The notes beneath the pieces are model-generated. The model saw nothing but the letters and a program-made list of their open reading frames with translations. It was not told the DNA's origin and ran no database searches. Shown here piece by piece: positions 1 through 52,981 of a DNA stretch of 52,981 nt. The stretch lies in UHGV virus genome UHGV-1367038, one strand, 5' to 3'. This DNA is from a virus. A program made the position numbers and the translations under genes. How positions within the stretch are numbered: position 1 is the first letter of the stretch; each line of letters opens with the position of its first letter.

Positions 1-2265
1 ACGCTTACTACCGATACGTCATATGAATTCTACTATGCAGGGGAAAATCAGATCACAGATCCGGCAAAAATAACCACGTCGGCACAGTTTACCGGGCGCG
101 GGTATCAGTGGACGTTCGGCGGCATGAATACGGGCCATACTTATTACGTTTATGTGCGCACTCGTAATGCTTTTGGTGTGTCTGATTTCGTCGAGGCATC
201 AGGTAAGCCAACAGAGGATTTTGACGAAATCACTGATTACGTTACAAAGGATGTAATGGAATCAGAGCAATTCAAGGAGATGATTAGCGACATTAAAGAT
301 CTTGGTGATCGCACTGATATTGTAGAAGGAGCTACCGAAGACCTTAAAATAGCTACAGAGGATCTTAAAGCTGACACAGATACACTTAAAAAAGACACCG
401 AAGACCTTTATAAAAAAGTCGAAGAAAACGCCGATGAAATAGGCAAACATGAGGTAAGAATAGACTCATTAGAGGTATCAAACGAAAACGTTAACAACGA
501 ACTGGCACAGGCAAAAGCAAGTTTACAAAACGCTTCGCTTGCTCTGATCAATAACTCGCTTGCTCAAACTAACACGCGGGTTACTCTTACCGCTCAATAT
601 AAGAAAGGTCGCAACGAAACAAAGGCACAGATTGACCGCATCGACAACGTTATCGCAGAGGAGAAAAAAGCGACAGCGGAATCACTGGAAACCATCACAG
701 CCGAAATAAATACGATAGACTCAAACATCAAAGGAGAAATAGCCCGCGTAGACAAAGCAATAGCAACCGAAACGCAGGCGAGAACGGAAGCTATAAGCAA
801 CGTTAACGCCAGTATCAGCAGCCTGGAAAACAAAACTGATGCGAGCGTTTCTCGTCTCGATCAAGCTATCGCTGACGAATCAAGCGCCCGCGCTCAGGCA
901 ATATCAGGAATCAGTGCGGAGCTTGGTCTTGTTGAAAATGAGGTTGATAAAAACAGCGACGAAATAGATCAGGCGAAAGCAAGCCTGCAAAATGCCTCAC
1001 TTGCACTTATTAATAACTCAATAGCGCAAAGCAAAATGAGCACTGTTATTGAGGCAAAATACAGGAAAGGCCAGACAAAAACAAAAGCGGAAATAGCAAG
1101 AATCGACACCGCAATAGCAGACGAAACCCAGGCCCGCGCGGAGGCTATAGCATCGCTTGAGGCAAATATTAATGAAAACATTTCAGCAAAAATAACGGAT
1201 GTCTCAACGGCACTCGCAACTCACGAGGCATCAAGCGCTGAAAAATTTGTCCAGATCTCGGCGTCTTTCGAAGATGTAAATTCAAGCATCACGGAATGGT
1301 CGCGGGCTATGGCAACGGCAGACGAGGCTTTATCAACCAAAATTGACCAGTTAAAAGTAACTATTGACGGGAACACAACAGCCATAGAGACGACATCGAA
1401 AGCGTTAACGGACTTTAAGGGGAATGTTGACGCATCATACTCTATTAAGATCGCGACAGACAGCAGGGGCGTAAAATACGCTACTGGTATGTCACTTGGC
1501 CTTACTGGTAGCGGAACTAACGTGCAATCGCAGTGTATTTTCCTCGTTGATCGCTTCGTGTTAATGACTGCGGCAAACGGTTCATATCAGACCCCGTTCT
1601 ATGTTACTAACGGCGCTTGCTACATTCGTGAAGCGTGGATCAAAGACGCATCCATCACTACCGCGAAGATCGCGCAGCAAATCCAGTCAACCAACTATAC
1701 ATCTGGTTCGGCTGGCTGGATGCTAAACAAAAACGGTAACGCGGAGTTCAATAACGTCACTGTTCGGGGTACGGTATACGCCACAAACGGTAAATTTACT
1801 GGTGAGATTCAGGCCACAAGCGGGACGTTTAAAGGGACTGTACAGGCTAACAAATTTGTCGGTGATATTGTGGCTATTCACACTTTCCCTGATTCCAGCA
1901 CTGTCTATAACTCAAGCCAGCGTGTAGCGCGTTTCTGTTATCGCTATGTGGACTCAACATCCGAAGGGACTTATAAAAACGTTATGTTCCAGGCAAGGTT
2001 ATCAGGGGCTACTGGCAACTCACAGATCAATACCTGGATAGCTGGTTCTCAGGTATTGGTTGGTAAGAAATACGGTAACGAAAACTCGAACGGCATGTTC
2101 TGTTTCGGTAGGGATGGTGTAACAAATCAGACGGTCGATGTTATTATCGAGATCTACACTCCGTGGTCAACAGGTAACATCACCGGGATTACGTTAAGTT
2201 GTCCGACTATGTTTATCGGTCGCAGTAACGGCACATGGTCGAAATGGGAAGAATCACACGACTAA
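1..2265 (+). CDS. J: Host specificity / central tail fiber protein J, C-terminal part (5' partial; continues from window end)
   Basis: Open frame from base 1; FN3-like segment (HTYYVYVRTRNAFGVSDFVEASG) resembles lambda J; long coiled-coil with internal duplication; C-terminal receptor-binding-like domain. Confidence 0.8.
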   Translation, partial: TLTTDTSYEFYYAGENQITDPAKITTSAQFTGRGYQWTFGGMNTGHTYYVYVRTRNAFGVSDFVEASGKPTEDFDEITDYVTKDVMESEQFKEMISDIKDLGDRTDIVEGATEDLKIATEDLKADTDTLKKDTEDLYKKVEENADEIGKHEVRIDSLEVSNENVNNELAQAKASLQNASLALINNSLAQTNTRVTLTAQYKKGRNETKAQIDRIDNVIAEEKKATAESLETITAEINTIDSNIKGEIARVDKAIATETQARTEAISNVNASISSLENKTDASVSRLDQAIADESSARAQAISGISAELGLVENEVDKNSDEIDQAKASLQNASLALINNSIAQSKMSTVIEAKYRKGQTKTKAEIARIDTAIADETQARAEAIASLEANINENISAKITDVSTALATHEASSAEKFVQISASFEDVNSSITEWSRAMATADEALSTKIDQLKVTIDGNTTAIETTSKALTDFKGNVDASYSIKIATDSRGVKYATGMSLGLTGSGTNVQSQCIFLVDRFVLMTAANGSYQTPFYVTNGACYIREAWIKDASITTAKIAQQIQSTNYTSGSAGWMLNKNGNAEFNNVTVRGTVYATNGKFTGEIQATSGTFKGTVQANKFVGDIVAIHTFPDSSTVYNSSQRVARFCYRYVDSTSEGTYKNVMFQARLSGATGNSQINTWIAGSQVLVGKKYGNENSNGMFCFGRDGVTNQTVDVIIEIYTPWSTGNITGITLSCPTMFIGRSNGTWSKWEESHD

Positions 2266-2269
2266 TACT

Positions 2270-2291
2270 AACCCCGCTACGGCGGGGTTTA
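2270..2291 (+). terminator. Rho-independent terminator-like hairpin after J
   Basis: CCCCGC-tacg-GCGGGG followed by TTTAT. Confidence 0.5.
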
Positions 2292-2373
2292 TACATATAG
2301 TAAACACATATTCGTCTGCGTAATGACAAAACGTTAAAATAGTATGGTTAATTAACAAGATGGAGTCATTGCG

Positions 2374-4149
2374 ATGATTTACACAACAGGCACGATAGCC
2401 GTTAGCGGAAAAACAGTTACCGGAACGGGGACTGAATTCAACGCCGCATTATCTCTGATCAGAGTGGGTTGCACTCTTATTGCCATTAGTAATCCGGTGC
2501 AGATTTTCTCAATCACAGAGGTAAAAAGCGCGACAAGTTTGTCAGTAACTCCGGCAGCAAGCCCGGCAATTCCGGCTGGAACTAAATTTAGCATCCTGCT
2601 TTCAGATTCGATCTCTGTGGATGGTCTTGCTCAGGATGTTGCAGAAACACTGCGTTACTATCAGGGCAAGGAATCAGAAATAGCTGACGCCGTTGAATTT
2701 TTTAGCGACAACAAAGATGTGATTTCAGCCTCAAAATTAGCATCAGAATCAGCTACCACTGCAACCAATGCGGCAACAACAGCGACAACCGCCGCCAATT
2801 CAGCAAAGACATACAGAGACGAGGCCCACGAATACGCCAATCAGACGGCGCAGCCTTACGCGTATGTTTTGCAGCCGCTGCCGGACGTATGGATACCGTT
2901 TAATGATTCACTTGATATGCTCACTGGCTACGGCCCTGGCACTAAAAAAGTAACCATTGATGGTGAAGAAAAAACAATATCATCAGATAAGGTTGTTTCT
3001 TTCTCACGCGCAAGCACTGCGACCTATATCAATAAATCCGGTGTACTCACCACTGCTGATATTGATGAGCCGCGTTTCGAACGCGATGGATTATTAATCG
3101 AAGGCACACGCACAAATTACCTTACCAATTCTAATACGCCGACGTCGTGGAATGCTAACACAGGCGTCTTAGAATTAACTGAATCAGGGACGGATAGTTA
3201 CGGCTTTAATTATGGAACATTTACATGCACAGCAGATGCGGCATCAACAGCGACGTTAATTTCGACAGGCACATCAAGAGTAATAGCTACCGCATCCGGC
3301 GAATCAGTTACTATTTCCGGGCGCTTTAAGGGTACTGGCGTCCGCGCACGGGCGCGTATCTCAAAACTTAATGAAGATGGATCAGGTAATACATTCATTG
3401 CTGACGCGCTTTTGGATCTTGATACAAAAGTTTTAACGTACGCCGCTAATTATCTATCTGCTTACTTCGTTGATGAAGGAAACGGATGGCTTTTCTTTTC
3501 CACCACGTATACAGCAACCGAAGATATTGACGTCTACGCACGCTTTGAATTATCACCAAAAACCGGGGAAACATTAGCAATAGGCGACAGTATCACCATG
3601 ACCACGCCGCAGTATGAGTCTGGTTCTTGCGCATCATCGTTTATTGTATCAGGTGACAATCCAACCACACGAGCAAGCGACCTGGTAAGCATACCGACTA
3701 AGAATAACTTATTTAAGCCACCATTCAGTTTTTTACTTGAATTACATAAGGAATGGACAACAGCGCCAAACGCAGCACCTAGAGTATTTGATATTGCAAA
3801 CGCAAGCACAGGACAATCTATTATAGCTGCCATTAACAGAGGTAGCAGTAAATTTTACGTTTCCTTGTCTAACAGTTCTGGTGATTACATCAATTCTGCC
3901 GCTGATTCCGTATTGCCAAGTAAAGCCATTGTTGGTGCGGTAGCTAAAGGTGATGATACTTTTCACGCGATCATGGATGGTGTGGCCGTTGCAGATGCAA
4001 CATGTTCTTACGGTGGAGTAACTCAAGGCAAAAACATCAGATTCGGCGGTCAGGTAGCAGACGGAGCGCGCCACTTGTTCGGACATATAAGAAATTTTCG
4101 TATCTGGCACAAAGCATTAACTGATTCTCAATTAAGCGAAATTGTTTAA
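2374..4149 (+). CDS. Side tail fiber protein with C-terminal lectin/LamG-like domain
   Basis: 591 aa; GGAG RBS; N-terminal MIYTTGTIAVSGKTVTGTGTEF typical of enterobacterial phage tail fibers; Ala/Thr-rich shaft; position after J. Confidence 0.6.
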   Translation: MIYTTGTIAVSGKTVTGTGTEFNAALSLIRVGCTLIAISNPVQIFSITEVKSATSLSVTPAASPAIPAGTKFSILLSDSISVDGLAQDVAETLRYYQGKESEIADAVEFFSDNKDVISASKLASESATTATNAATTATTAANSAKTYRDEAHEYANQTAQPYAYVLQPLPDVWIPFNDSLDMLTGYGPGTKKVTIDGEEKTISSDKVVSFSRASTATYINKSGVLTTADIDEPRFERDGLLIEGTRTNYLTNSNTPTSWNANTGVLELTESGTDSYGFNYGTFTCTADAASTATLISTGTSRVIATASGESVTISGRFKGTGVRARARISKLNEDGSGNTFIADALLDLDTKVLTYAANYLSAYFVDEGNGWLFFSTTYTATEDIDVYARFELSPKTGETLAIGDSITMTTPQYESGSCASSFIVSGDNPTTRASDLVSIPTKNNLFKPPFSFLLELHKEWTTAPNAAPRVFDIANASTGQSIIAAINRGSSKFYVSLSNSSGDYINSAADSVLPSKAIVGAVAKGDDTFHAIMDGVAVADATCSYGGVTQGKNIRFGGQVADGARHLFGHIRNFRIWHKALTDSQLSEIV

Positions 4150-4159
4150 GGTGGTTAGC

Positions 4160-4426
4160 ATGAAAGACGTTAGCTTGCAATTTACTGATAAACAGCAATA
4201 CAACGACATTGTGATTAACAGCGGCTGGCTGGACGAAAATCAGCAAACCGTGTTTATTGATGATATTGGTTTTGTTCTTGTATTCGATGATCCAGAAAGC
4301 GACACGCCTGTACTGATTGAGAAAAAAGGCTATTACGTCAACATGCGCATAACTGGTGACGATGTTGATTTGTCGCCGCTGGAAAAATTCATCATTCCAG
4401 ATCCCGGCGTCCGCGCATGGGCTTAA
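4160..4426 (+). CDS. Hypothetical protein downstream of tail fiber
   Basis: ATG with AAGGTGG RBS; 88 aa; the listed ORF start at 4142 is a TTG. Confidence 0.5.
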   Translation: MKDVSLQFTDKQQYNDIVINSGWLDENQQTVFIDDIGFVLVFDDPESDTPVLIEKKGYYVNMRITGDDVDLSPLEKFIIPDPGVRAWA

Positions 4427-4470
4427 TGGTGCGATAGTAACAGCATGGTGATGTTGAAGACATCGCCGCG

Positions 4471-4500
4471 AAACGAGGCTAACGCCTCGTTTCTTTTTGT
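4471..4500 (+). terminator. Rho-independent terminator
   Basis: AAACGAGGC-taac-GCCTCGTTT then CTTTTTGT. Confidence 0.7.
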
Positions 4501-4519
4501 GTACCAAATAGTGACCAAA
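4499..4519. repeat. Arm-type direct repeat copy 1 (GTGTACCAAATAGTGACCAAA), candidate integrase arm site in attP
   Basis: 19/21 identical to copy at 4740..4760; flanks int. Confidence 0.45.
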
Positions 4520-4702
4520 TATCAAAAATCAAAAGCAAAAATAACGTAATACACTGTTTTATAAATGATTATTCGTTGCGCTAACCATTCCAGACAGGAC
4601 CAGCGCACTATGTTTAAAGGTGTTTAACTCCGTTCAATCTCTCCACTAAAATTACTTAAAAATCATCCGGTTGTAACCAAAATCAAGCGTCACGTTTCTA
4701 AT

Positions 4703-13593: not shown

Positions 13594-13622
13594 TTGACTC
13601 GGTGTATCACGGGGCGTATATT
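13594..13622 (+). promoter_or_regulatory. pL-like sigma70 promoter
   Basis: TTGACT - 17 bp - TATATT; TATACAAAATGGA motif abuts the -35. Confidence 0.55.
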
Positions 13623-13758: not shown

Positions 13759-14049
13759 ATGACCGTAACAATTATGTATGGCAAATGTGATAGCAAAATA
13801 AATGCCAGGGAACGCAGAAGAATAAAAAGAGAAAACGAAAGAAAATCATCACCTGCAATCAATAAAACTGACAATGTTGATAAAGCTATTCGTTTTGCAA
13901 ACGTAGAAAGATGCAAACCGAATGGCATTAAAGAGCATCGCAAAGGTGCGGCAAAATGGTATGCGGAAAACGAAAGCGGCAATTACTACCACGCAACACA
14001 ACCGCGTAGTCTAGGGGAAAAACCCCTGGATAAAGTACGCTACAGATAA
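13759..14049 (+). CDS. N-like transcription antiterminator
   Basis: 96 aa basic protein; N-terminal MTVTIMYGK..INARERRRIKRENERK resembles the P22/lambda N arginine-rich motif; AAGGAG RBS; first gene after pL-like promoter. Confidence 0.55.
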   Translation: MTVTIMYGKCDSKINARERRRIKRENERKSSPAINKTDNVDKAIRFANVERCKPNGIKEHRKGAAKWYAENESGNYYHATQPRSLGEKPLDKVRYR

Positions 14050-19763: not shown

Positions 19764-20247
19764 AGCGGCTGAATTGCTAAGACTTGCGGCTGAAACTATT
19801 GAAGCAAGAGGGGAACAAAACGGATACGATCGAAAAGAAGAAAAATCAGCGCCAAAAATAGCCACTATTTACAACGCTAAGAAGGGGACAAATCTAACCA
19901 CGCTTGATGTATGGGATCTACTAATTTGTCTCAAGGAGGCGCGATTAGAGGCCATTTTAAGCAATGGTAGCGACCCGCTCGATACTCTTATAGACCTTAT
20001 TGCTTATAACGCGCTAAAAGCGGAGCAAATATTAACGGAGCGGGAGGAAGAACAAAGAAAGAAACAGGCTGTTTTTGATATGCCGTTAAATTGCGGCTGT
20101 AAGAAAGCCTCAATACCTGGCGACCTGATCGCCAGTGGTGAAGTAACGCTAAATGATAGCTTCCTACTTGATAACGGCTGGCGGTTTAATAAAGAGGCTT
20201 TATTGTATACACCGAAGGATCATAAAGATGGAAAGGGTGATGATTGA
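19756..20247 (+). CDS. Hypothetical protein
   Basis: GAGG RBS; 163 aa. Confidence 0.5.
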   Translation: MSKAAELLRLAAETIEARGEQNGYDRKEEKSAPKIATIYNAKKGTNLTTLDVWDLLICLKEARLEAILSNGSDPLDTLIDLIAYNALKAEQILTEREEEQRKKQAVFDMPLNCGCKKASIPGDLIASGEVTLNDSFLLDNGWRFNKEALLYTPKDHKDGKGDD

Positions 20248-20731: not shown

Positions 20732-21486
20732 GTGGGCTTAGAAATTGGGTGGTGTGGTCGCTGTACGACGGCAGCGGATACGCCGTTAAAGATTGGGCCG
20801 ACGCTGGTTATAAATGCTATTGCTTCAACTATGATGGCGCTAATCACGGCGATTATGAAGGCGTCAAAATCATTCATCCGAACATTGAGTATGTCAACGT
20901 ATGGATTGACAGCCATTTCCTGGTGATGTTCTCCCCTGAATTGTCTGTATATCCAGATCCTGACATTATTTTGGCCTTCCCGCCGTGCGACGATCTCGCT
21001 GTTTCCGGCGCTCGCTGGTTTGCTGATAAGCGGAAAAAAGATCCTCACTTTCAGGATAAGGCAGCGTATAACGCAAAACTGGTGGAAACGCTGGCTGACA
21101 TGTACCACGTGCCGTGGATGGTGGAAAATCCGGTGGGCGCACTGTCAACGTTATGGCGTAAACCGGATTTTATCTTTAATCCGTGCGCTTACGGTGGTTA
21201 TCTGCCTGAAGATGATGAACATCCATCTTTCCCGGATGTTTACCCTCCGCGCGACGCGTATACGAAGAAGACTTGTATCTGGTGTGGTAACGGATTTAAA
21301 CAGCCTCTTTTTAGACCTGTAGATCTTAACTCTGATGATAACCCTGGCTGGGCGAAAACAGGAGGCAGGACGAAAAGGACTAAGATGATCCGCTCGCTAA
21401 CGCCGCGTGGATTCGCCAGAGCTGTATTCCTGGCTAACGACCGGGCAATCACGAGGACTACTCTTAACCGCGTTTTACCGGATTGA
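20728..21486 (+). CDS. DNA cytosine-5 methyltransferase-like protein (short form)
   Basis: FPPCDDLAVSG resembles C5-MTase motif IV (PPCQxFSxAG); ENPVG resembles motif VI (ENV); DGSG motif I-like. Confidence 0.45.
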   Translation: MSGLRNWVVWSLYDGSGYAVKDWADAGYKCYCFNYDGANHGDYEGVKIIHPNIEYVNVWIDSHFLVMFSPELSVYPDPDIILAFPPCDDLAVSGARWFADKRKKDPHFQDKAAYNAKLVETLADMYHVPWMVENPVGALSTLWRKPDFIFNPCAYGGYLPEDDEHPSFPDVYPPRDAYTKKTCIWCGNGFKQPLFRPVDLNSDDNPGWAKTGGRTKRTKMIRSLTPRGFARAVFLANDRAITRTTLNRVLPD

Positions 21487-21508
21487 TGTTTACAAAATGG
21501 CGTCATTG

Positions 21509-21576
21509 TGTGATGAGGATCACATAATGGCGCTTTATTGCTTGTTCGCATGTATCCGTTTTGTATACTTCAAACA
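21509..21576 (+). promoter_or_regulatory. Conserved intergenic element: perfect CRP-consensus palindrome TGTGA-N6-TCACA plus ATCCGTTTTGTATAC block
   Basis: TGTGATGAGGATCACA at 21509..21524; homologous to 17941..18008. Confidence 0.5.
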
Positions 21577-21647
21577 AACAAAATGCTCTTTAAAAATCCG
21601 GTAACGCTGAAATGCGTAAAAATCACCTGAAAAAAGGAGAGAGCATT

Positions 21648-21824
21648 ATGCCTTTTGAGAATTACCAATGGCATGACGACTATGAGAGAGAAAGTGTCAT
21701 GCGTGCAATGTGCAATGTATGTAGCACTAAGAAAGGAGAATGTAACGAGTGCAACGAATGCGTAGATCGCTTGCTAAGGGCAGGACACGCCGAAAGGCTG
21801 AACGAAACAGAGAATCAAAAATAA
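21648..21824 (+). CDS. Small Cys-rich (zinc-finger-like) protein
   Basis: GGAGAG RBS; CNVCSTKKGECNECNEC. Confidence 0.5.
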   Translation: MPFENYQWHDDYERESVMRAMCNVCSTKKGECNECNECVDRLLRAGHAERLNETENQK

Positions 21825-22848: not shown

Positions 22849-23027
22849 AAAACGAAATTAAAGATCTGCAAATTGATATTCAGCGCGACGAGCGTGATTT
22901 AGAAACGGTCAGACAAATCCAGGCTTTCCACATGCGAGAATTACTCGCGCTAAAAGAGTTTGAAAGGAAGTTAGTGCAAGCTATTTCTGATCGCAAACGC
23001 CTTGTTGCTCGTTACGGGGGCAAATAA
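22845..23027 (+). CDS. Hypothetical protein
   Basis: 60 aa ORF, coupled. Confidence 0.45.
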   Translation: MKNEIKDLQIDIQRDERDLETVRQIQAFHMRELLALKEFERKLVQAISDRKRLVARYGGK

Positions 23028-23755
23028 TGAATTTAGAGTCAATTCTAAAATTCCACTTTCCTAAATCGCCGCGATTATCAGACGAAAGCCGTGGTACATC
23101 CCCTGATGCGCTTAATACTACTGATGCGCTTACCGCAGCTGGTATGGCGCAATCTCGCGTAGAGCTTGGATATAGCGCTTTTTTGGGAAAGATGGAGCTA
23201 TCGCAAGCCGAAAAACACAGGGCCGTAGTTTTGCTTACAGAGCGTTTAAGAGCTATGGCAAAAGATTACGAATACGTCATGGAACTGGACGAGGAAAAGC
23301 GCAATGATTTTATTATTCTTGTTGCCGTTTTCGCGTTTCGGGATTACTGCCAGAGTGCAGCGACCGAAAAAGTTTGCCCTAAGTGCTGCGGTCACGGGCA
23401 TTTACCAAATCAATATTGCAAATACACATCAACAATTTGCGCACGGTGCGGCGGCAAAGGCTACGTTAAAAACCATTGCCAGCGGTGCAAGGGCCGTGGC
23501 GAAGTACCGGATAAAGCAGCCAGCGAGGCAGCGGAAATGCCAGTTTTCAGAACGTGCCAGCATTGCGGCGGGCGCGGGTACTCGCGTTTCCCTGTAGATC
23601 TTGTCCGGCAGGCGGTTAATCAGCTTGTTTTTCCGGTAAGCCGATCAACATGGTGGAAGAAATACAGGGTTTTCTATGAGGACGCCATAGCTGAGCTATT
23701 CAAAGAAGAAGCCCGCGCGGAAAGCGAAATCAAGCGAGTGACGAGAGGTGAATAA
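23027..23755 (+). CDS. Putative late-gene regulator (Q-like antiterminator candidate) with DnaJ-type CxxCxGxG zinc fingers
   Basis: CPKCCGHGH, CARCGGKGY, CQRCKGRGE, CQHCGGRGY; position after NinG-RusA as in lambdoid phages. Confidence 0.4.
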   Translation: MNLESILKFHFPKSPRLSDESRGTSPDALNTTDALTAAGMAQSRVELGYSAFLGKMELSQAEKHRAVVLLTERLRAMAKDYEYVMELDEEKRNDFIILVAVFAFRDYCQSAATEKVCPKCCGHGHLPNQYCKYTSTICARCGGKGYVKNHCQRCKGRGEVPDKAASEAAEMPVFRTCQHCGGRGYSRFPVDLVRQAVNQLVFPVSRSTWWKKYRVFYEDAIAELFKEEARAESEIKRVTRGE

Positions 23756-23958
23756 TGGATAAGTTGGAAATAAACGATCAGTTCGCTGTTATCTTATTCG
23801 AAGATAAAACAGGCGGCGCATGGTGTAAGAAAGTCACTGGTGCTGAAGCGCGTTTAATATTAGGCATGGCAAGCGCATTAAACGAAGGCGAATTACCAGC
23901 AGTTCCCATTGAACCAGTTCACATTTACGGACGGAAGAAAGACGATGAAAATAATTAA
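23755..23958 (+). CDS. Hypothetical protein
   Basis: 67 aa ORF. Confidence 0.45.
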   Translation: MDKLEINDQFAVILFEDKTGGAWCKKVTGAEARLILGMASALNEGELPAVPIEPVHIYGRKKDDENN

Positions 23959-25665: not shown

Positions 25666-25899
25666 ATGCGTATCTATGAACACAAGCGGGATAAAACCCG
25701 CTTTTTTGTTCGTGCTGGCGTGGCGTACCAGTATCACGAATGCGGATATATCGAGGCGCTTGCTTACGACCTTGATTTTGAACAAGAAAAAGAATGGTTT
25801 GACTTTAAGATTTACCGGAAGCGCAAGCCGACGCGCGACGAGCGCCACGCTATTCGTGACTTTTTAATCAGCATTGACCGGTGGGAGGCAGAAGAATGA
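25666..25899 (+). CDS. Hypothetical protein
   Basis: 77 aa ORF. Confidence 0.45.
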   Translation: MRIYEHKRDKTRFFVRAGVAYQYHECGYIEALAYDLDFEQEKEWFDFKIYRKRKPTRDERHAIRDFLISIDRWEAEE

Positions 25900-26593: not shown

Positions 26594-26809
26594 ATGTTTG
26601 CAAGATGCGTTTATTCTGATACTTCGTGCTTCACTACTGGCGAACTATATAGCGTTGATCTTCTTAATGGGTGCAAGCGCGGCGCTGGCGGTATTCATTA
26701 TGTAAAAGATAATGATGGCGATGCGTGGCAATTTTACGGAGATCATGCAAAAGGTGTTGTTAAGGGTAGTTTTGATAATCGTGTAATGGCGCGTTTTGTT
26801 AAGTGGTGA
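26594..26809 (+). CDS. Small protein, paralog family member 1
   Basis: C.YS...F..G.LY.V ... DNDGDAWQFY pattern shared with neighbours. Confidence 0.5.
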   Translation: MFARCVYSDTSCFTTGELYSVDLLNGCKRGAGGIHYVKDNDGDAWQFYGDHAKGVVKGSFDNRVMARFVKW

Positions 26810-28290: not shown

Positions 28291-28330
28291 AACACGGGGC
28301 CGGATGGCCCCATCAAACGGAGTATAAATT

Positions 28331-29273: not shown

Positions 29274-29466
29274 ATTTCTTATCGCTGCAATTATCTTTCT
29301 TTATATCGCTGGCGCTATATTAATGTCTTGCTTTGTTAGAAGTAACGATCTCGGCCCGGCTTACCTTGAAGTTACTTTTTGGCCTGTAGCAGTCTTTTAC
29401 GCTTTTGTAGACGCTACGCGCATACAGATCATGCGAGCTATTAAGGAGCGTAAAAATGGGAAATAG
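29266..29466 (+). CDS. Small membrane protein
   Basis: GGGGG RBS; MIEFLIAAIIFLYIAGAILMSCFV; the listed ORF from 29179 is probably an over-extension. Confidence 0.45.
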   Translation: MIEFLIAAIIFLYIAGAILMSCFVRSNDLGPAYLEVTFWPVAVFYAFVDATRIQIMRAIKERKNGK

Positions 29467-29653
29467 CGACCATAAATATGATGGCGTTTATCAGTCATTG
29501 GTGTCACGCGCTTATTATCGACTTGAAGGTGAACACGTAATGATGCGATTACGCCAGTGTGATCCGTGGCATGAAACGATTTTACCTGTGACAGCGAAAG
29601 AAGTTATCGCGATGTTTAATCACGGATACTGGCGCAAGGTTGGTGATTTATGA
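29456..29653 (+). CDS. Hypothetical protein
   Basis: 65 aa ORF. Confidence 0.45.
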   Translation: MGNSDHKYDGVYQSLVSRAYYRLEGEHVMMRLRQCDPWHETILPVTAKEVIAMFNHGYWRKVGDL

Positions 29654-29823
29654 ACGAGATCGAAGATGGTATCTATGTGCATAACTTATTTGATATTACT
29701 TACTTGCTGAAAGAAGAAAAGGTTTTTGTTATGTCGAGTGGGCATCCTTTCTGGACTTTCGTAAACATGGATCGTGAACAGATGCAAATATTGCTTGATA
29801 ATGGCCTGATAAAGAAGAAATAG
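29650..29823 (+). CDS. Hypothetical protein (57 aa)
   Basis: ATGA overlap with upstream stop. Confidence 0.4.
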   Translation: MNEIEDGIYVHNLFDITYLLKEEKVFVMSSGHPFWTFVNMDREQMQILLDNGLIKKK

Positions 29824-29889
29824 AAACCATAATCGCGCATAAAAAACAAATAGATTAAAATACTTCCTAACAATGCGAAATTGTAATTA

Positions 29890-29912
29890 CCCGGCACCGC
29901 GCCGGGTTTTTG
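29890..29912 (+). terminator. tR'-like terminator about 20 nt upstream of holin
   Basis: CCCGGC-accgc-GCCGGG then TTTTT. Confidence 0.7.
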
Positions 29913-29931
29913 CTTTGTTGGAGGTAAATCT

Positions 29932-30132
29932 ATGTTCGACAGAATACGGGAGGCGTGCGCGTATGTGACTGGGGCCGTAACTGCTTTTTTCGGCGCGATA
30001 ACCATCAATGACATTGCCGTCTTTGTGGGTATCTTATCAACCATTGGCACATTTGCCGTTAATTATTACTTCAAATCACAGGAGAACAAGCGAGCGCAAG
30101 AGGAACACGACGCGCGAATGGGGAATAAGTAA
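29932..30132 (+). CDS. Class II holin (phage 21 S-like pinholin candidate)
   Basis: 66 aa, two TM segments, charged C-terminus; GGAGG RBS. Confidence 0.6.
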
Positions 30133-30133
30133 A

Positions 30134-30625
30134 ATGATTAGCCAATCGCTGAAAAACAAAATTGTTGCGGCGGCGGCTGGTGGGGCGATCGCTATTGCGG
30201 CGGTGATGATAAAAGATCTTGAAGGCGTTGAGTATGAGCCATACAGAGATGTTATCGGTGTTTACACAATATGTTATGGTCACACCGGAAAGGACATTAT
30301 GTTGGGTAAGACTTACACGCAATCAGAATGCGATGCTTTGTTAAATAAAGATCTCCACAAAACCGCAAAAGCGATCGACCCCTATATTAAAGTCGAAATA
30401 TCAGATTTTACCCGCGCGGCGCTTTATTCATTCGCCTATAACGTAGGCGCTACAAACTTCAAAACATCAACCTTATTGAAGCTACTTAATGACGGCAAGA
30501 AATCAGAAGCGTGCGCACAGCTTAAACGCTGGATATACGCTGGCGGCAAGAAGTGGCAAGGCCTTGTTAACCGCCGTGATGTTGAATATGCCGTTTGCGA
30601 ATGGGGTGAAACATGGACAAGGTAA
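30134..30625 (+). CDS. SAR endolysin (T4-type lysozyme, GH24)
   Basis: N-terminal Gly/Ala-rich signal-anchor-release segment; E..D..T catalytic pattern ([22 protein letters not shown]). Confidence 0.8.
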
Positions 30626-31080
30626 AGGCGTTAATTATTGCCGTTGTTCTCTGTGTTGTTACCGCTCTGGTAGCTGCGTTATCTCACACTACCAGTCAGA
30701 TTTCTGCATTAGAGGCAGAGTTACAGACCACACAGGGCGCACTTAAGACAGCAAGTAACACTATTCAGCAGATGAAGGAGCGAAACGCCGAACTGTCAAA
30801 ACTTGATAAGAGGTATCACGATGAAATTAAAGCTATCAGGTCTGACATTGCCGATCTGCGCACTGGCATTGACAATGGCACTATCAAGCTGCGCGTCAAC
30901 GCAATGCCAGTGCGAGTGGACTCCGCCACAGGAACCGCCAGCAGCATTGATGGAGCCACCTGTAGACTCACTGCCAGTGCTCAATCAAATTATCTATCCC
31001 TCAGAGAACAATTAAAAGAGAAAGACGCGAAGATCACCGGATTGCAGGACTACATCAAGACGCAGTGCTTACGCAAATAA
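30613..31080 (+). CDS. Rz: Rz-like i-spanin
   Basis: N-terminal TM segment plus coiled-coil periplasmic domain; overlaps lysozyme stop. Confidence 0.7.
30821..31015 (+). CDS. Rz1: Rz1-like o-spanin lipoprotein, embedded in Rz in the +1 frame
   Basis: AGAGG RBS; lipobox LSSC; Pro-rich mature region. Confidence 0.6.
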   Translation: MKLKLSGLTLPICALALTMALSSCASTQCQCEWTPPQEPPAALMEPPVDSLPVLNQIIYPSENN

Positions 31081-31362
31081 TAACAGCGCGTGGACGTGTC
31101 GCCGTTTCCGCCAGCCAGCCATAACCGGGCCAATCCTTCCCGCGAGCGACGGCGGAATAGTCAAAAACACGTAATACCGGAACATCCATCCCATTAACAG
31201 GTCCGGCGCTACCTGGGTAGAAGAAAGCGCCATTCGCCAATTTTATAAAATTCTGGAAACGGTACTGATGAAGCGCCGTTTTCAGTGTTTTATAGCTGTT
31301 TTCACTCCCTGCGGTGTCGAGTTTTGCGGGGGTTATATTTTTCAGAATAGGAGATTATTCTG

Positions 31363-31905
31363 ATGGCTAAGGCTAAAGGCATTAAGTTGCCTCACTTCAA
31401 AATCCCACTATTTGAGCATACAACCGTTTTCTTTTGCCCGACCCGCGAGATGTTTTATGAATTTTGCGAAAAGGCAGGAATTCCAATCGAGCCTGATTTC
31501 GAACTGGCAGGCGGCCTGACACTCACTTGCACTGGCGAGAAAGGCGGTAACTTCTACGTGATCGCAGTATTCGACAATGAGTTAGGAACGCTGGTACATG
31601 AATGCGCTCACACCACATTCCATGTTTTAAGTGATGTAGGCGTCGTGGCGACCACTGATCCAACTCATCCGGCGAATGAGACTTACGCTTACATGGTAGG
31701 CCGCATCTTTGATGCATTTTTCCCTATCCTGGCTGAATCAAACGAAGCACAGGTTGCAGCAATGCAGGCGGCTGAAGTCGTTGAGCAGGCATTAGAACAG
31801 GCAGAACAGCCGAAGGAAGAAGAAAAACCCGCTAAGAAAGGCAAACGTAAGCCGAAATCAAAAGAAGCGTATGTACCGCGTGTAATGAGCTTTAAGCGAG
31901 GCTGA
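31363..31905 (+). CDS. Hypothetical protein with HExxH zincin-like motif
   Basis: LVHECAHTTFH; Lys-rich C-terminus. Confidence 0.5.
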   Translation: MAKAKGIKLPHFKIPLFEHTTVFFCPTREMFYEFCEKAGIPIEPDFELAGGLTLTCTGEKGGNFYVIAVFDNELGTLVHECAHTTFHVLSDVGVVATTDPTHPANETYAYMVGRIFDAFFPILAESNEAQVAAMQAAEVVEQALEQAEQPKEEEKPAKKGKRKPKSKEAYVPRVMSFKRG

Positions 31906-32003: not shown

Positions 32004-32074
32004 ACACCTACGATCTCATCTGGTTATTGGTGCTCATCGTAGGTATTGGCGTGAACATTTACAGGCTATGGTGA
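32000..32074 (+). CDS. Tiny hydrophobic peptide 2 (24 aa)
   Basis: ATGA overlap; MNTYDLIWLLVLIVGIGVNIYRLW. Confidence 0.45.
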   Translation: MNTYDLIWLLVLIVGIGVNIYRLW

Positions 32075-32078
32075 AAAT

Positions 32079-32153
32079 ATGATTGACCCGCTTATTATCC
32101 TTTCTGCCTGCGTCGCTGTATGGCTGGCGATCATGATATTCATTGAAAGCTGA
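32079..32153 (+). CDS. Tiny hydrophobic peptide 3 (24 aa)
   Basis: MIDPLIILSACVAVWLAIMIFIES. Confidence 0.4.
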   Translation: MIDPLIILSACVAVWLAIMIFIES

Positions 32154-32164
32154 AGGTATTCACC

Positions 32165-32239
32165 ATGAATATTTACGATCTCATCTGGTGGTCGTTGGTC
32201 GCCGTAATTATCTATTTCTGGTGGAAGAATGTTGTATAG
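32165..32239 (+). CDS. Tiny hydrophobic peptide 4 (24 aa), paralog of peptide 2
   Basis: AAGG RBS; MNIYDLIWWSLVAVIIYFWWKNVV. Confidence 0.45.
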   Translation: MNIYDLIWWSLVAVIIYFWWKNVV

Positions 32240-32246
32240 GTGAATT

Positions 32247-32336
32247 ATGTATGGCCCATTCTACGAGTTAATACCGCTTGTTGTTCTGGCGATTGTTATA
32301 TGGTTTTTCTATGCGATGTTCAGAGTTCGCCCATAG
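32247..32336 (+). CDS. Tiny hydrophobic peptide 5 (29 aa)
   Basis: AGGTGA RBS; MYGPFYELIPLVVLAIVIWFFYAMFRVRP. Confidence 0.45.
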   Translation: MYGPFYELIPLVVLAIVIWFFYAMFRVRP

Positions 32337-32344
32337 GTGACTGC

Positions 32345-32443
32345 ATGGATATATTCGAACTACTGGCGATTATGTGCGGCATGATGTTAGGCATTGTCGC
32401 CATAATTATCATCATCGGCCTTGTTATGGGTAGCATCAAATGA
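32345..32443 (+). CDS. Tiny hydrophobic peptide 6 (32 aa)
   Basis: AGGTGA RBS; MDIFELLAIMCGMMLGIVAIIIIIGLVMGSIK. Confidence 0.45.
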   Translation: MDIFELLAIMCGMMLGIVAIIIIIGLVMGSIK

Positions 32444-32529
32444 ACGCATACGAAATGCTATTGCTGGTGGCTGTAGTTGTAGTCATTGCCGTAGATGTTT
32501 ATCGGGAGTTTAAAAATGAAATGGCTTGA
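32440..32529 (+). CDS. Tiny hydrophobic peptide 7 (29 aa)
   Basis: ATGA overlap; MNAYEMLLLVAVVVVIAVDVYREFKNEMA. Confidence 0.4.
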   Translation: MNAYEMLLLVAVVVVIAVDVYREFKNEMA

Positions 32530-32584
32530 TTTCTTTTTCCTGATTGTTGCGATTGTTCTCACCATGACCGCGCTGACTCAATAG
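32516..32584 (+). CDS. Tiny hydrophobic peptide 8 (22 aa)
   Basis: GGGAG RBS; MKWLDFFFLIVAIVLTMTALTQ. Confidence 0.4.
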   Translation: MKWLDFFFLIVAIVLTMTALTQ

Positions 32585-32592
32585 GTGAGCGA

Positions 32593-32667
32593 ATGAACGC
32601 TATTGACATTATGTTGATCGTGTGTACCGTTGCGTTAATTATCGTTGGGGTGATTATCAATGTCTGA
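32593..32667 (+). CDS. Tiny hydrophobic peptide 9 (24 aa)
   Basis: AGGTGA RBS; MNAIDIMLIVCTVALIIVGVIINV. Confidence 0.45.
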   Translation: MNAIDIMLIVCTVALIIVGVIINV

Positions 32668-32728
32668 CAGTGATTTCTTAATCATGGCTATATGCACGTT
32701 GTTAGTCGTTATAGTTTTCTTCGCGTAA
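32660..32728 (+). CDS. Tiny hydrophobic peptide 10 (22 aa)
   Basis: MSDSDFLIMAICTLLVVIVFFA. Confidence 0.4.
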   Translation: MSDSDFLIMAICTLLVVIVFFA

Positions 32729-32742
32729 ACAAGGTGGACAAT

Positions 32743-32814
32743 GTGAGAGAGTCAGATTTTATCTATATGGTTTTGGCTATCGTCCTCATTACCTGGGCGC
32801 TTTCGATTATGTGA
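32743..32814 (+). CDS. Tiny hydrophobic peptide 11 (23 aa, GTG start)
   Basis: AAGGTGG RBS; (M)RESDFIYMVLAIVLITWALSIM. Confidence 0.35.
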   Translation: MRESDFIYMVLAIVLITWALSIM

Positions 32815-32825
32815 AGGGGTAAACA

Positions 32826-32909
32826 ATGAAAGAGCTATTCGACTGGTTGGAAGTATTAACATACTGTGCAAGTTTTGTCGCTTGCGTATATATCATCAAT
32901 AAATATTGA
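32826..32909 (+). CDS. Tiny hydrophobic peptide 12 (27 aa)
   Basis: GAAGGGG RBS; MKELFDWLEVLTYCASFVACVYIINKY. Confidence 0.4.
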   Translation: MKELFDWLEVLTYCASFVACVYIINKY

Positions 32910-32919
32910 GAGGTGAATT

Positions 32920-33420
32920 ATGGCCCGCACTAAAAAGGCAAAAGCTGACGATAAAAAGCCAGCCGCAAAAAGGGTGGGCCGTCCGCATGGTTATACAGAA
33001 GAAAAAGCGTTAGAGATATGCGAACTGGTGGCGGACGGTCAGAGCATTAACAAAATATCAAAAATGCCAGGTATGCCTACCCGTTCAACAATCCTGAAAT
33101 GGTTTAGGGATGTACCGGAATTCTCGATCATGTACGCACGCGCGAAGGAGATCGGTTTCGAGGTGTTGGCTGACGAAATTATCGACCTGGCTGACTCCGA
33201 GAATAACGCTAATAAAGATCAGTGCCGCCGCCATCAACTGATGATTGATACCCGCAAATGGTTACTGGCAAAACTCCAACCGCGCAAATACGGCGAACGC
33301 GTCACACAGGAGATTGTTGGTGATGCAAATAATCCGGTACAGGTTGAACAACATACGCAAATGTCGATCGAGGACTACAGAAACGCCCGCCGTGAAATGC
33401 TCGAAGAAGATGATTGTTAA
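32920..33420 (+). CDS. Terminase small subunit
   Basis: 166 aa; N-terminal HTH-like basic region; position immediately upstream of large terminase; GAGAGGTGA RBS. Confidence 0.55.
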   Translation: MARTKKAKADDKKPAAKRVGRPHGYTEEKALEICELVADGQSINKISKMPGMPTRSTILKWFRDVPEFSIMYARAKEIGFEVLADEIIDLADSENNANKDQCRRHQLMIDTRKWLLAKLQPRKYGERVTQEIVGDANNPVQVEQHTQMSIEDYRNARREMLEEDDC

Positions 33421-39986: not shown

Positions 39987-40006
39987 TCTGACGTTTTCCT
40001 GTAACT

Positions 40007-40034
40007 CCCCGGCGCGATGCCGGGGATTTTTTTT
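40007..40034 (+). terminator. Strong rho-independent terminator after major capsid gene
   Basis: CCCCGGC-gcgat-GCCGGGG then ATTTTTTTT. Confidence 0.8.
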
Positions 40035-50791: not shown

Positions 50792-52981
50792 ATGAGTAGC
50801 GGCGGCGGCAAAGCAAAAACACCGACTTTGATTAATGATAACCTTTATCACAAACAGTTTTATCGTGTGCTGGATATTATTTCGGAAGGTCCGATTTATG
50901 GCCCTGTCAATACCAGTGCGCCATTAAATAGCGTAATGCTTAATGACACTCCTGTAACTGACGCTAACGGTAATACCAGTATCCCTGGTGTTAGCGTTGC
51001 GTGGCGTAATGGTACGTTAGATCAATCACCTATTAACGGCTTTAATGCCATCGAATCAACGGTAATGGTTAACGCGCAGGTGAAACACGACACGCCACTT
51101 GTAAGGACGGTATCAGATCCGAACGTGACGCGAGTCCGGTTAAATATTGGCGTGGATTCTCTGGTGGAAAGCGATAGCCAATCAAACCAGAAAGAAACAT
51201 CTGTCATTATGGCGATCGACGTTAAACCGTCCTCATCTTCCACATGGTCGTCTATTAAGGCCGTGCAAATAGGCCCAGGTAAAATCAGCGGAGAATACCT
51301 TGAAGCGCATATTATTGATGCGCCAGATGAAAAGCCGTTTGATATTCGCGTTCGCCGCGTAACCGCTGATAGCACAAGTGATCTATTGCAGAATGATACG
51401 CGGTGGAGTAGCTACAGCGAAATAATCGACGATAATTTGTCTTATCCTCACACTGCTGTAGCAGGCGCGGTTATTGATCACGATCAGTACACTGACACAC
51501 CTACTCGCACTTATCACCTGCGTGGGCTTATTGTTGACGTGCCTGATAACTACGACCCGGAAACGCGCACTTATTCCGGTTTATGGCTTGGTGGTTTGAA
51601 ACGGGCTTACACTAATAACCCTGCGTGGATCTTCCGCTACCTGGTAAAAAATGAGCGTTTCGGCCTTGCCCGTCATGCTGGTTATATCGACGTTGACGAC
51701 GGCGCATTATATACACTCTCCCAATACTGCGACCAGTTGGTCGATGATGGTTACGGTGGCCTTGAGCCGCGCGTGACGCTTAATGCGTACATAACAGAGC
51801 AAATGAGCGCACGCGATTTGCTGGACAACATCGCCGGGATGTTCCGTGGCATCGCGTTATGGGACGGGCAACGCCTTACCGTAATGATTGATGCACCGCA
51901 AGATCCAATCGCCACCATTACTAATGCAAACGTTGTTGATGGCGCGTTTACTCGTTCAAGTATCTCCCGTGCGGAATGCTACAACGCCGTGATCGTATCC
52001 TGGACTGACCCGGAAAACGGTTGGGAACAATCAAAAGAGTATGTAGCAGATGATGAGCTAATAGCCCGCGATGGCTACAACGAAACCACGATGGAGGCGT
52101 TCGGGTGCACGTCACGCGGGCAAGCGTACCGTGCTGGCAAATGGCTGATAGAAACAGCAAAACGCGAGCCGTCAAAATTCACGTTTAAAATGGCACGTGA
52201 CGCAATTCACTTTACGCCAGGGGATATAATCGAGATCCTCGACAATAACCGCGCAGGCGCTCGTTTAGGCGGTCGTATTGTGGCGAACAATGGGAACGTA
52301 ATAACAGTTGATAAGGTTGACAGTGAGTATATCACGGCGGGTGATACTATCAGCCTTCTCGATAGCGATGGCAAATTTAAAAAACATCAGATTACTGGTG
52401 TAAACGGAAACGAAATCACACTAGCGGCGGCCCCGGCATGGATTCGGAACGGTACTGTATTTGCTGTATCCACCGAAGCGGCAAAACCCGTTTTATGCCG
52501 GATCACCAGTGTAGCCGAAACCGAAAATAATAGCGTGTATACCATCGAAGCAGCGCAACATGACCCGAACAAACAAGCGGTAGTCGATGAAGGCGCGATA
52601 TTTGAAATCAACAACGACACGCTTAATCACTTCCGTGTCCCGAACATTGAAAACCTGAAAGTGGTAAACATCGGATCTGAAACAGTTCAATGCCGAGCTA
52701 CATGGGAAACACAGACAACCACGCATCGCATGACATTCGAGATCCGCATATACAATACTGATGGTGCGGTGGTTAAAAGCTACGAAACAACGAAATACAG
52801 TTATGATTTTTATGGTATTGACGCTGGCGCGTATTCGTTAGGCGTTCGCGGAAGAAACGATACTGGCATGAAAGGCGCTGAAAGCATTGTTGATCTTGTT
52901 ATTGGTGCTCCAGCCGCGCCAGTTGGCGTAAATTGGGTTCCAGGCGTATTTCAGGCGACCGTGTACCCGATAAGCAAAACC
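50792..52981 (+). CDS. J: Host specificity protein J, N-terminal 730 codons (3' partial; continues at base 1)
   Basis: AGGAG RBS; similarity to lambda J along the whole segment (ISEGPIYGPV..., WSSYSEIID, MEAFGCTSRGQAYRAGKWLIET); no stop before window end. Confidence 0.9.
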   Translation, partial: MSSGGGKAKTPTLINDNLYHKQFYRVLDIISEGPIYGPVNTSAPLNSVMLNDTPVTDANGNTSIPGVSVAWRNGTLDQSPINGFNAIESTVMVNAQVKHDTPLVRTVSDPNVTRVRLNIGVDSLVESDSQSNQKETSVIMAIDVKPSSSSTWSSIKAVQIGPGKISGEYLEAHIIDAPDEKPFDIRVRRVTADSTSDLLQNDTRWSSYSEIIDDNLSYPHTAVAGAVIDHDQYTDTPTRTYHLRGLIVDVPDNYDPETRTYSGLWLGGLKRAYTNNPAWIFRYLVKNERFGLARHAGYIDVDDGALYTLSQYCDQLVDDGYGGLEPRVTLNAYITEQMSARDLLDNIAGMFRGIALWDGQRLTVMIDAPQDPIATITNANVVDGAFTRSSISRAECYNAVIVSWTDPENGWEQSKEYVADDELIARDGYNETTMEAFGCTSRGQAYRAGKWLIETAKREPSKFTFKMARDAIHFTPGDIIEILDNNRAGARLGGRIVANNGNVITVDKVDSEYITAGDTISLLDSDGKFKKHQITGVNGNEITLAAAPAWIRNGTVFAVSTEAAKPVLCRITSVAETENNSVYTIEAAQHDPNKQAVVDEGAIFEINNDTLNHFRVPNIENLKVVNIGSETVQCRATWETQTTTHRMTFEIRIYNTDGAVVKSYETTKYSYDFYGIDAGAYSLGVRGRNDTGMKGAESIVDLVIGAPAAPVGVNWVPGVFQATVYPISKT

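Follow-up and report, generated by a model that had tools for sequence, protein, structure and literature searches.

We have identified a conserved noncoding block directly upstream of the terminator that precedes the holin gene in the viral genome UHGV-1367038, a stretch of 52,981 nucleotides (nt) that was analysed over its whole length and is referred to here as the window. The window represents the genome, complete or nearly so, of a temperate coliphage that belongs to the mEpimmI group. Its late control region is probably the 108-nt spacer that precedes the holin gene; this would be a compact Q-lambda-type PR'-qut-tR' module, standing apart from the gene for its antiterminator, Q. What was established directly comprises the elements within the spacer and how well they are conserved, the family to which Q belongs and what the lysis genes encode. 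The terminator of this phage group (TERM_5) and its Q gene had already been annotated, and what is new is the conserved noncoding block upstream of the terminator. The mechanism is that of standard, textbook Q antitermination; the unusual feature is the gene order, with Q located 6 kb from its predicted target.

The mEpimmI phages are Nus-dependent yet non-lambdoid. They encode an N-like antiterminator, Gp17, that acts at the sites nutL, nutR1 and nutR2, and a protein described as 'Q-lambda-like' (PMC11893012). In one study of human faecal samples, the group was as common as the lambdoid phages. In the canonical late control cassette, the promoter PR' comes immediately after the Q gene and leads into a sigma-dependent pause element and then a terminator (PMC9388147). 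The Q-binding element (QBE) lies between the -35 and -10 elements of the promoter, and a -10-like pause element occupies the early transcribed region (PMC4914094; PMC9388147). In the literature consulted, which covers early antitermination by Gp17 and does not include Arch Virol 168:92, we found neither a late promoter nor a qut site described for an mEpimmI phage.

The conserved spacer block and its terminator

Forty-five IMG/VR loci were gathered by means of the Q protein, and Escherichia coli prophages and mEp021 were added to them. The 170 nt upstream of the holin gene were aligned for 48 loci, which yielded 30 distinct sequences, and nucleotide diversity was computed on 38 distinct longer sequences. 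The features that emerged are listed in Table 1. Over its first 20 nt the spacer has two unrelated, mosaic versions across the group, type A (CCATAATCGCGCATAAAAAAC, found in the window) and type B (GCCGTATTTGTRGRGCGWAAAC), with TCGCGC and TTGTRG, respectively, at the position expected of a -35 element. Each version is seen next to a variety of upstream genes and in combination with either length variant of Q, and the switch between the two looks like a recombination joint placed exactly at the -35 position. Nucleotide diversity across 29824..29844 is 0.29. From 29844 onward the spacer is almost invariant throughout the group, reading AAACAAAYRGATTAAAATA-yttcCTAACAATGCGAAAyTGTAAy and then running into a hairpin; columns 29844..29849 and 29853..29862 show no variation at all. 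The core of this block, TAAAAT-N7-AACAAT-GCGAAAT, is kept in the 48 loci even where the upstream gene has been replaced or where the holin is only 57% identical (two loci). Diversity in 29845..29888 is 0.061; the third codon positions of the holin gene have 0.114 and those of the endolysin gene 0.214. The noncoding block is thus more conserved than synonymous sites in these genes and is under purifying selection.

The hairpin that closes the block is a strong intrinsic terminator. Its stem and loop, ACCCGGC-ACCGC-GCCGGGT at 29889..29907, comprise seven pairs, six of them G-C, around a 5-nt loop, and are followed by TTTTTGCTTTG; the T-run stops at 29912, which leaves 19 nt to the holin ATG (29932). 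Folding of the 48 nt of RNA from the predicted start gave -18.5 kcal/mol, compared with -10.2 +/- 2.4 for shuffled sequences (z = -3.46), and none of 200 shuffles folded as well. Terminator-like matches are enriched across the region (18 versus 9.6 expected). The stem arms are near-invariant (diversity 0.007) and the loop is variable (0.221), which indicates that the hairpin is selected as a structure. In the mEp021 GenBank record (MH706966), this hairpin carries the annotation TERM_5 and immediately precedes a 'putative class II holin'. A scan of the whole window against Rfam matched no family. An earlier reading of the window made from its letters alone (hereafter, the sequence-only reading) had placed a strong terminator at 29890..29912, 20 nt before the holin, and the late promoter within 29824..29889. 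The terminator is borne out, all of the features of that reading lie within 1-2 nt of where it put them, and the PR'-like block makes 29824..29889 the best-supported location for the promoter. A second possible structure in the block, the inverted repeat ACAAT-GCGAA-ATTGT (29870..29884), was rejected as a conserved structure, because many relatives carry a T-to-C change that disrupts one of its pairs and is uncompensated.

Table 1. Coordinates of features in the window, with the evidence on which each is based
Feature	Position	Strand	Evidence
mEp021 Gp17 homologue, N-like early antiterminator	13759..14046	+	tblastn, 94% identity over 95 aa
Counterpart of mEp021 nutR2 region, upstream of Q	21467..21653	+	blastn, 90% identity to mEp021 20087-20220
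Q antiterminator gene, Q-lambda family, 242 aa	23027..23755	+	PF03589, phrog_127, PDB 7ubm chain Q, alignments
25 tightly packed orphan small open reading frames, 43-127 aa	23755..29823	+	Open reading frame list; ~100% coding coverage
Variable upstream part of spacer, including expected -35 position (29833..29838)	29824..29843	+	30-sequence alignment
Conserved A-rich segment AAACAAATAGAT, candidate Q-binding element by position only	29844..29855	+	Directly upstream of -10
Predicted -10 hexamer TAAAAT, PR' analogue	29856..29861	+	Invariant in 30/30 distinct sequences
AACAAT, predicted sigma70-dependent -10-like pause element; first A is predicted start	29869..29874	+	Invariant block 29867..29880
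Intrinsic terminator, tR' analogue, ~+21..+44 of predicted leader	29889..29912	+	Hairpin scan, RNA fold, conservation, MH706966 annotation
Shine-Dalgarno GGAGG of holin gene	29920..29924	+	Sequence; kept in alignment
Holin, 66 aa, two hydrophobic segments (class II topology), HP1-type	29932..30132	+	PF16080, phrog_20, hydropathy
SAR (signal-anchor-release) endolysin, phage 21 R / RrrD type	30134..30625	+	PF00959, PDB 3hde, 4zpu, N-terminal segment
Rz (i-spanin), N-terminal transmembrane segment	30613..31080	+	PF03245 E 2.2e-23, phrog_13 E 3.4e-40, hydropathy
Rz1 (o-spanin lipoprotein)	30821..31015	+	PF06085 E 8.4e-07, phrog_3198, lipobox LSSC residues 21-24

The arrangement of the block was compared with the late control regions of phages in which these adjoin Q. 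The search pattern consisted of a hexamer, 17 nt, TAnnnT, 5-6 nt and AACnnT, within ~110 nt past the Q stop codon in the canonical phages. It was matched in six phages with a Q of the lambda family, namely lambda, P22, SfV, Bp96115, EhrS_59 and Klebsiella ST16-OXA48phi5.1 (pause element AACGAT in the last), five of which are set beside the window in Table 2. Looser versions were recognized by eye in Edno5, YeP3 and mEp460, and the pattern was not found in the region after Q in PSTCR3. A terminator follows the PR'-like pattern in those canonical phages that were read. In the window, TAAAAT-ACTTCCT-AACAAT-GCGAAATTG followed by a terminator reproduces the order and spacing of elements in the PR' family, and the early transcribed region resembles those of Bp96115 (AGAAATCC) and Edno5 (GGAAATTC). 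In the P22 record the late RNA probably has its 5' end at the first A of AACGAT, and a terminator is given at +31..+59. Lambda and P22 share with the window a PF03589 Q protein and the succession of -10 element, discriminator, AACnnT, intrinsic terminator, lysis genes and morphogenesis genes. They differ in that the -35 element of lambda is TTGACT whereas that of the window is weak, and in that the terminator of P22 and lambda ends roughly 300-400 nt before the holin. The predicted leader of the window, at ~44 nt, is even shorter than the short leader of P22.

Table 2. Elements of late control regions in phages of the Q-lambda family and in the window
Phage	-35 and spacing	-10	Discriminator	Pause element and following sequence
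lambda	TTGACT, 17 nt	TAAATT	TGACTC	AACGAT-GGG
P22	as lambda	as lambda	as lambda	AACGAT-GGA
SfV	TTGCAT, 17 nt	TAAGAT	TTTTCC	AACGAT-GGG
Bp96115	TTGCAA, 17 nt	TATCAT	AACCCT	AACAGT-AGAAATCC
EhrS_59	TTTACA, 17 nt	TATAGT	CCTAT	AACACT-AGAAATCC
Window	(TCGCGC), 17 nt	TAAAAT	ACTTCCT	AACAAT-GCGAAATT

From this arrangement we infer promoter activity, a start site, a pause, a Q-binding site and dependence on Q. Host sigma70 RNA polymerase would use the -10 element TAAAAT to initiate at about A29869, and sigma70 would then re-bind the -10-like AACAAT at +1..+6, so that the polymerase pauses at about +16. When Q is absent, transcription is predicted to stop at the hairpin and U-tract at about +21..+44, producing a dead-end leader of ~44 nt and leaving the lysis and structural genes off. 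Q itself would be made earlier, from a transcript that begins at PR, is aided by the N-like Gp17 and nut sites, and also carries the 25 small open reading frames (ORFs) downstream of Q. Q is then proposed to bind DNA just upstream of the -10 element (candidate site 29844..29855) and to load onto the paused complex, yielding a terminator-resistant polymerase. Such a polymerase would pass 29889..29912 and later hairpins, for example that at 40006..40026, and continue through the lysis cassette and the morphogenesis genes.

The hairpin at 40006..40026 (plus strand) lies inside the late operon and is very strongly terminator-like, with nine pairs, seven of them G-C, followed by T8. It may be the counterpart of TERM_7 of mEp021, which follows a virion structural gene. 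Its presence suggests that late transcription needs antitermination that stays processive well past the lysis genes.

The Q gene and its distance from the lysis genes

The product of the Q gene matched PF03589 (E 5.8e-30, 103.7 bits against a cut-off of 26.7 bits), phrog_127 (E 3.5e-78) and lambda Q in PDB 7ubm, chain Q (E 1.5e-36). It is 38% identical to lambda Q in alignment, and conservation is strong in the N-terminal 60 residues, which align without gaps and include the invariant residues M1, L3-S5, K8-H10, P12-P15, S18 and D19 along with others. In lambda Q, residues 1-44 are the N-terminal segment that forms the torus at the RNA exit channel (PMC9388147). The CXXC motifs and the residues of the body also align with lambda Q. 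The zinc 'arm' contains four CXXCXGXG motifs, compared with two in lambda Q; the second pair is inserted relative to lambda Q (window 23369..23470, Q residues ~115-148) and is DnaJ-like, with a weak match to PF00684. Since the longer arm is common to the Q proteins of SfV, Bp96115, EhrS_59, Klebsiella ST16-OXA48phi5.1 and Edno5, it is not special to the phage of the window. The sequence of the arm insert varies inside the mEpimmI group, as seen between the window and mEp021. On the agreement of PF03589, 7ubm and the lambda Q alignment, the 'Q-like zinc-finger' gene called at 23027..23755 by the sequence-only reading is identified as a true member of the Q-lambda family.

Q does not lie immediately upstream of a PR' unit in the window, which departs from the canonical arrangement (PMC9388147). 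The distance from the Q stop codon to the holin start is 6,176 nt and holds 25 plus-strand ORFs, in agreement with the ~6 kb and ~25 small genes estimated beforehand, whereas PR' of lambda and P22 is within ~100 nt of the Q stop codon. Among the 46 loci in which both Q and holin could be located, the gap spans 2.0-6.8 kb. mEp021 belongs to the same phage group as the window and has the same terminator before the holin, the same Q and the same Gp17 and nut regions, but its gap is 2.0 kb with 8 genes, as opposed to 6.2 kb with 25 ORFs in the window.

The stop codon of Q overlaps the start ATG of the next ORF, and no conserved promoter with a terminator was found directly after Q in the window or its relatives. 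The only PR'-like match there is TAAGTT-GGAAATA-AACGAT (23760..23778), 5 nt past the Q stop codon. We considered this as a canonical PR' and rejected it: the string is part of the next ORF's coding sequence, other sequence stands in its place in several relatives (mEp021 among them), and no terminator comes after it. Either chance or descent from an ancestral PR' adjacent to Q might account for it. The proposal that the late promoter is separate from the regulator gene is consequently supported at the level of sequence, as no conserved PR'-like site adjoins Q.

The case for a local late promoter and its alternatives

Several observations weigh against placing a Q-dependent promoter in the spacer. 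The -35 position is poor and variable, and a scan for sigma70 promoters did not call a promoter at the conserved block. The generic arrangement TAnnnT-N5-7-AACnnT is not enriched in the window (21 matches versus 24.9 expected), so that the case rests on position, context and conservation rather than on the motif alone; the exact-site pattern with two mismatches allowed gave 16 matches, with 11.4 expected. No Q-binding site is recognisable from the sequence of the conserved spacer. All 48 loci represent one closely related phage group, which limits the weight of the invariance, and the exact block was not found in other phage groups, the 46 IMG/VR contigs that carry it being all the same as, or of the same kind as, the loci of this group. 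Among species-representative genomes there were only two matches, both at chance level and in Bacteroidota. Lastly, an N-modified polymerase coming from PR may already pass the terminator at 29889..29912. Q variants and spacer types do not covary, the 242-aa and 240-aa forms of Q each occurring with type A and with type B, and the comparison therefore gives no information on where Q binds.

The scan did call a promoter slightly upstream, CTGATA-16-CATAAT at 29806..29833, with 9 of 12 matches to consensus. Were this type A sequence the late promoter, with CATAAT (29828..29833) as its -10 and a start at about 29840, TAAAAT and AACAAT would serve as pause elements at about +17 and +30, much as phage 82 pauses at +25; pauses in Q systems are known at 16-25 nt (PMC4914094). 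We regard this arrangement as improbable. The majority type B has CCGTATT and lacks both CATAAT and its -35, and the -35 differs even among type A sequences; the Q protein here is of the lambda family, whose members put the pause element at +1..+6. As a conserved promoter the called site was rejected.

The weak or absent -35 also leaves a small probability for a late switch without a conventional promoter, through either promoter-distal engagement of Q or a -35-independent promoter that needs a further phage factor. In the first, Q would load onto polymerase elongating from the early operon, with no local initiation, and sigma70 would rebind in trans at the conserved block. In vitro, the Q protein of phage 82 can engage a paused complex far from the promoter provided that sigma70 is added in trans (PMC4914094), and the module closes a long operon of which Q is the beginning. 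However, NusA inhibited engagement by Q when the nascent RNA was long (PMC4914094) and Q-lambda needs NusA (PMC9388147), while most complexes shed sigma70 before reaching distal -10-like elements, which makes recognition inefficient (PMC4914094). An invariant TAAAAT 7 nt before a purine start also has the look of an ordinary promoter. Loading of Q without local initiation is accordingly the least probable of the alternatives in our estimation, and very improbable in itself. If the late switch were unconventional after all, it would offer a natural example of promoter-distal Q engagement and would explain how Q and its target could drift 2-7 kb apart.

A different kind of alternative dispenses with the spacer promoter altogether. 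The hairpin would then end a long delayed-early operon from PR and be passed only by polymerase modified by Gp17 at nutR1 and nutR2, with Q acting elsewhere or being redundant for the lysis genes. The parts for such a route are present: the Gp17 homologue (94% identity), a good PR-like promoter at 13594..13622, and nutR regions ~90% identical to those of mEp021, including the nutR2 counterpart, which is preceded by a terminator-like hairpin (21499..21534). In mEp021, Gp17 brings about antitermination at three nut sites, and a published figure on antitermination by Gp17 and nut counts 't5' among the experimentally demonstrated terminators (PMC11893012); we take t5 to be TERM_5. In the window, polymerase modified at the nutR2 counterpart should run on through Q, the 25 small ORFs and the terminator at 29889..29912. 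The weakness of the spacer -35 fits this scheme as well. Nevertheless, it leaves unexplained why ~45 noncoding nt before the hairpin are more conserved than synonymous sites, why they show the -10 and AACnnT layout of PR' regions in the Q-lambda family, and why a well-conserved Q gene would be left with no candidate target in the genome. We consider it unlikely that Gp17 alone opens the late region, although Gp17 and the nut sites probably provide a second, Q-independent route through the terminator, one that the sequence-only reading had overlooked. The likeliest picture is lambda-like: N-type read-through would produce Q and some early leak into the late region, and Q acting at the local promoter in the spacer would give the large late burst.

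Lysis genes, the small-ORF array and meaning for the phage group

The genes behind the terminator form a lysis cassette that is phage-21-like in its architecture. The holin matched PF16080 (E 1.8e-14, 53.9 bits) and phrog_20 (E 5.1e-20) and reached 22.6 bits against PF04971, the family of phage 21 S, which is under the 26-bit cut-off; no dual-start motif was found at its N-terminus. The endolysin matched PF00959 (E 6.3e-44) and the structures 3hde (E 2e-62) and 4zpu (E. coli RrrD; E 1.9e-63). The 3hde protein is the SAR endolysin of phage 21, and RrrD is that of DLP12. A Gly/Ala-rich hydrophobic segment at residues 8-29 and the triad E30-x8-D39-x5-T45 agree with assignment to the SAR endolysins. 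Rz1 lies wholly within Rz in another reading frame, and PF06085 and PF03245 were both matched above their cut-offs. Phage 21 resembles the window in having a close endolysin homologue (3hde), a small two-segment holin and Rz1 embedded in Rz, and differs in its holin, which belongs to the S21 pinholin family whereas that of the window is HP1-type. The description of this region as a phage 21-type cassette with a class II holin, a SAR endolysin and nested Rz/Rz1 thus stands for the two-segment topology of the holin, for the endolysin and for the spanins, the latter also on the lipobox of Rz1, but not for membership of the holin in the S21 family.

Two noncoding stretches follow the cassette. One of 283 nt lies directly after Rz (31081..31362), and another of ~900 nt without an ORF longer than 67 aa (32004..32919) separates the gene at 31363..31905 from the small terminase gene (32920..33420). 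They may contain a packaging site or regulatory sequence.

The array of small ORFs that fills the distance between Q and the late control region is hypervariable among relatives, and none of its 25 members matched a Pfam family above any cut-off. Three members, at 26594, 26819 and 27293, are weakly paralogous (E ~1e-4), and the last two, 29456..29653 and 29650..29823, both match phrog_15318. The array could be a hypervariable accessory or anti-defence region that is expressed early; its insertion point upstream of the promoter and terminator would assign it to the early transcript. Two terminator-like hairpins were noted within it, one on the plus strand at the start of ORF 25666..25899 (25684..25703; seven pairs, then TTTTTGTT) and a strong one on the minus strand at 28313..28294, in the short gap 28291..28330 (eight pairs, six of them G-C).

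The assignment to the mEpimmI group is based on nucleotide identity of 84-91% across most of the window and on synteny with mEp021 that takes in the Gp17 and nut regions. The first 25 kb are ~84-85% identical to mEp021 and relatives, and the lysis region is 87-91% identical to mEp010, mEp013, mEp021, mEp044, mEp515, mEp554 and MagusPhagus. The window is apparently circularly permuted with respect to the mEp021 record, similarity to position 108 of mEp021 beginning at 4694 of the window, so that the late operon would leave the window at its end and resume at its start. Within the end regions (1..4694 and 50900..52981), there is a match at 2830..2927 to tail-fibre genes from unrelated phages.

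For the field at large the consequences are small, the mechanism being textbook. For the mEpimmI coliphages, the conserved block gives a testable location for the late promoter and the qut site, and the arrangement indicates that a Q gene and its target need not adjoin. A preference of lambda Q for acting in cis has been reported, and the separation found here bears on that idea. Stx (Shiga toxin)-converting lambdoid phages likewise carry several kilobases of accessory genes between Q and the lysis genes. Their promoter and terminator stay beside Q, however, which puts the accessory genes in the late, Q-dependent transcript. The window would be the reverse: promoter and terminator stay beside the lysis genes, and the 2-7 kb array of orphan genes would fall in the early transcript, dependent on PR and N, with the terminator insulating it from the late transcript. 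This placement bears on the timing with which accessory genes are expressed in these phages.

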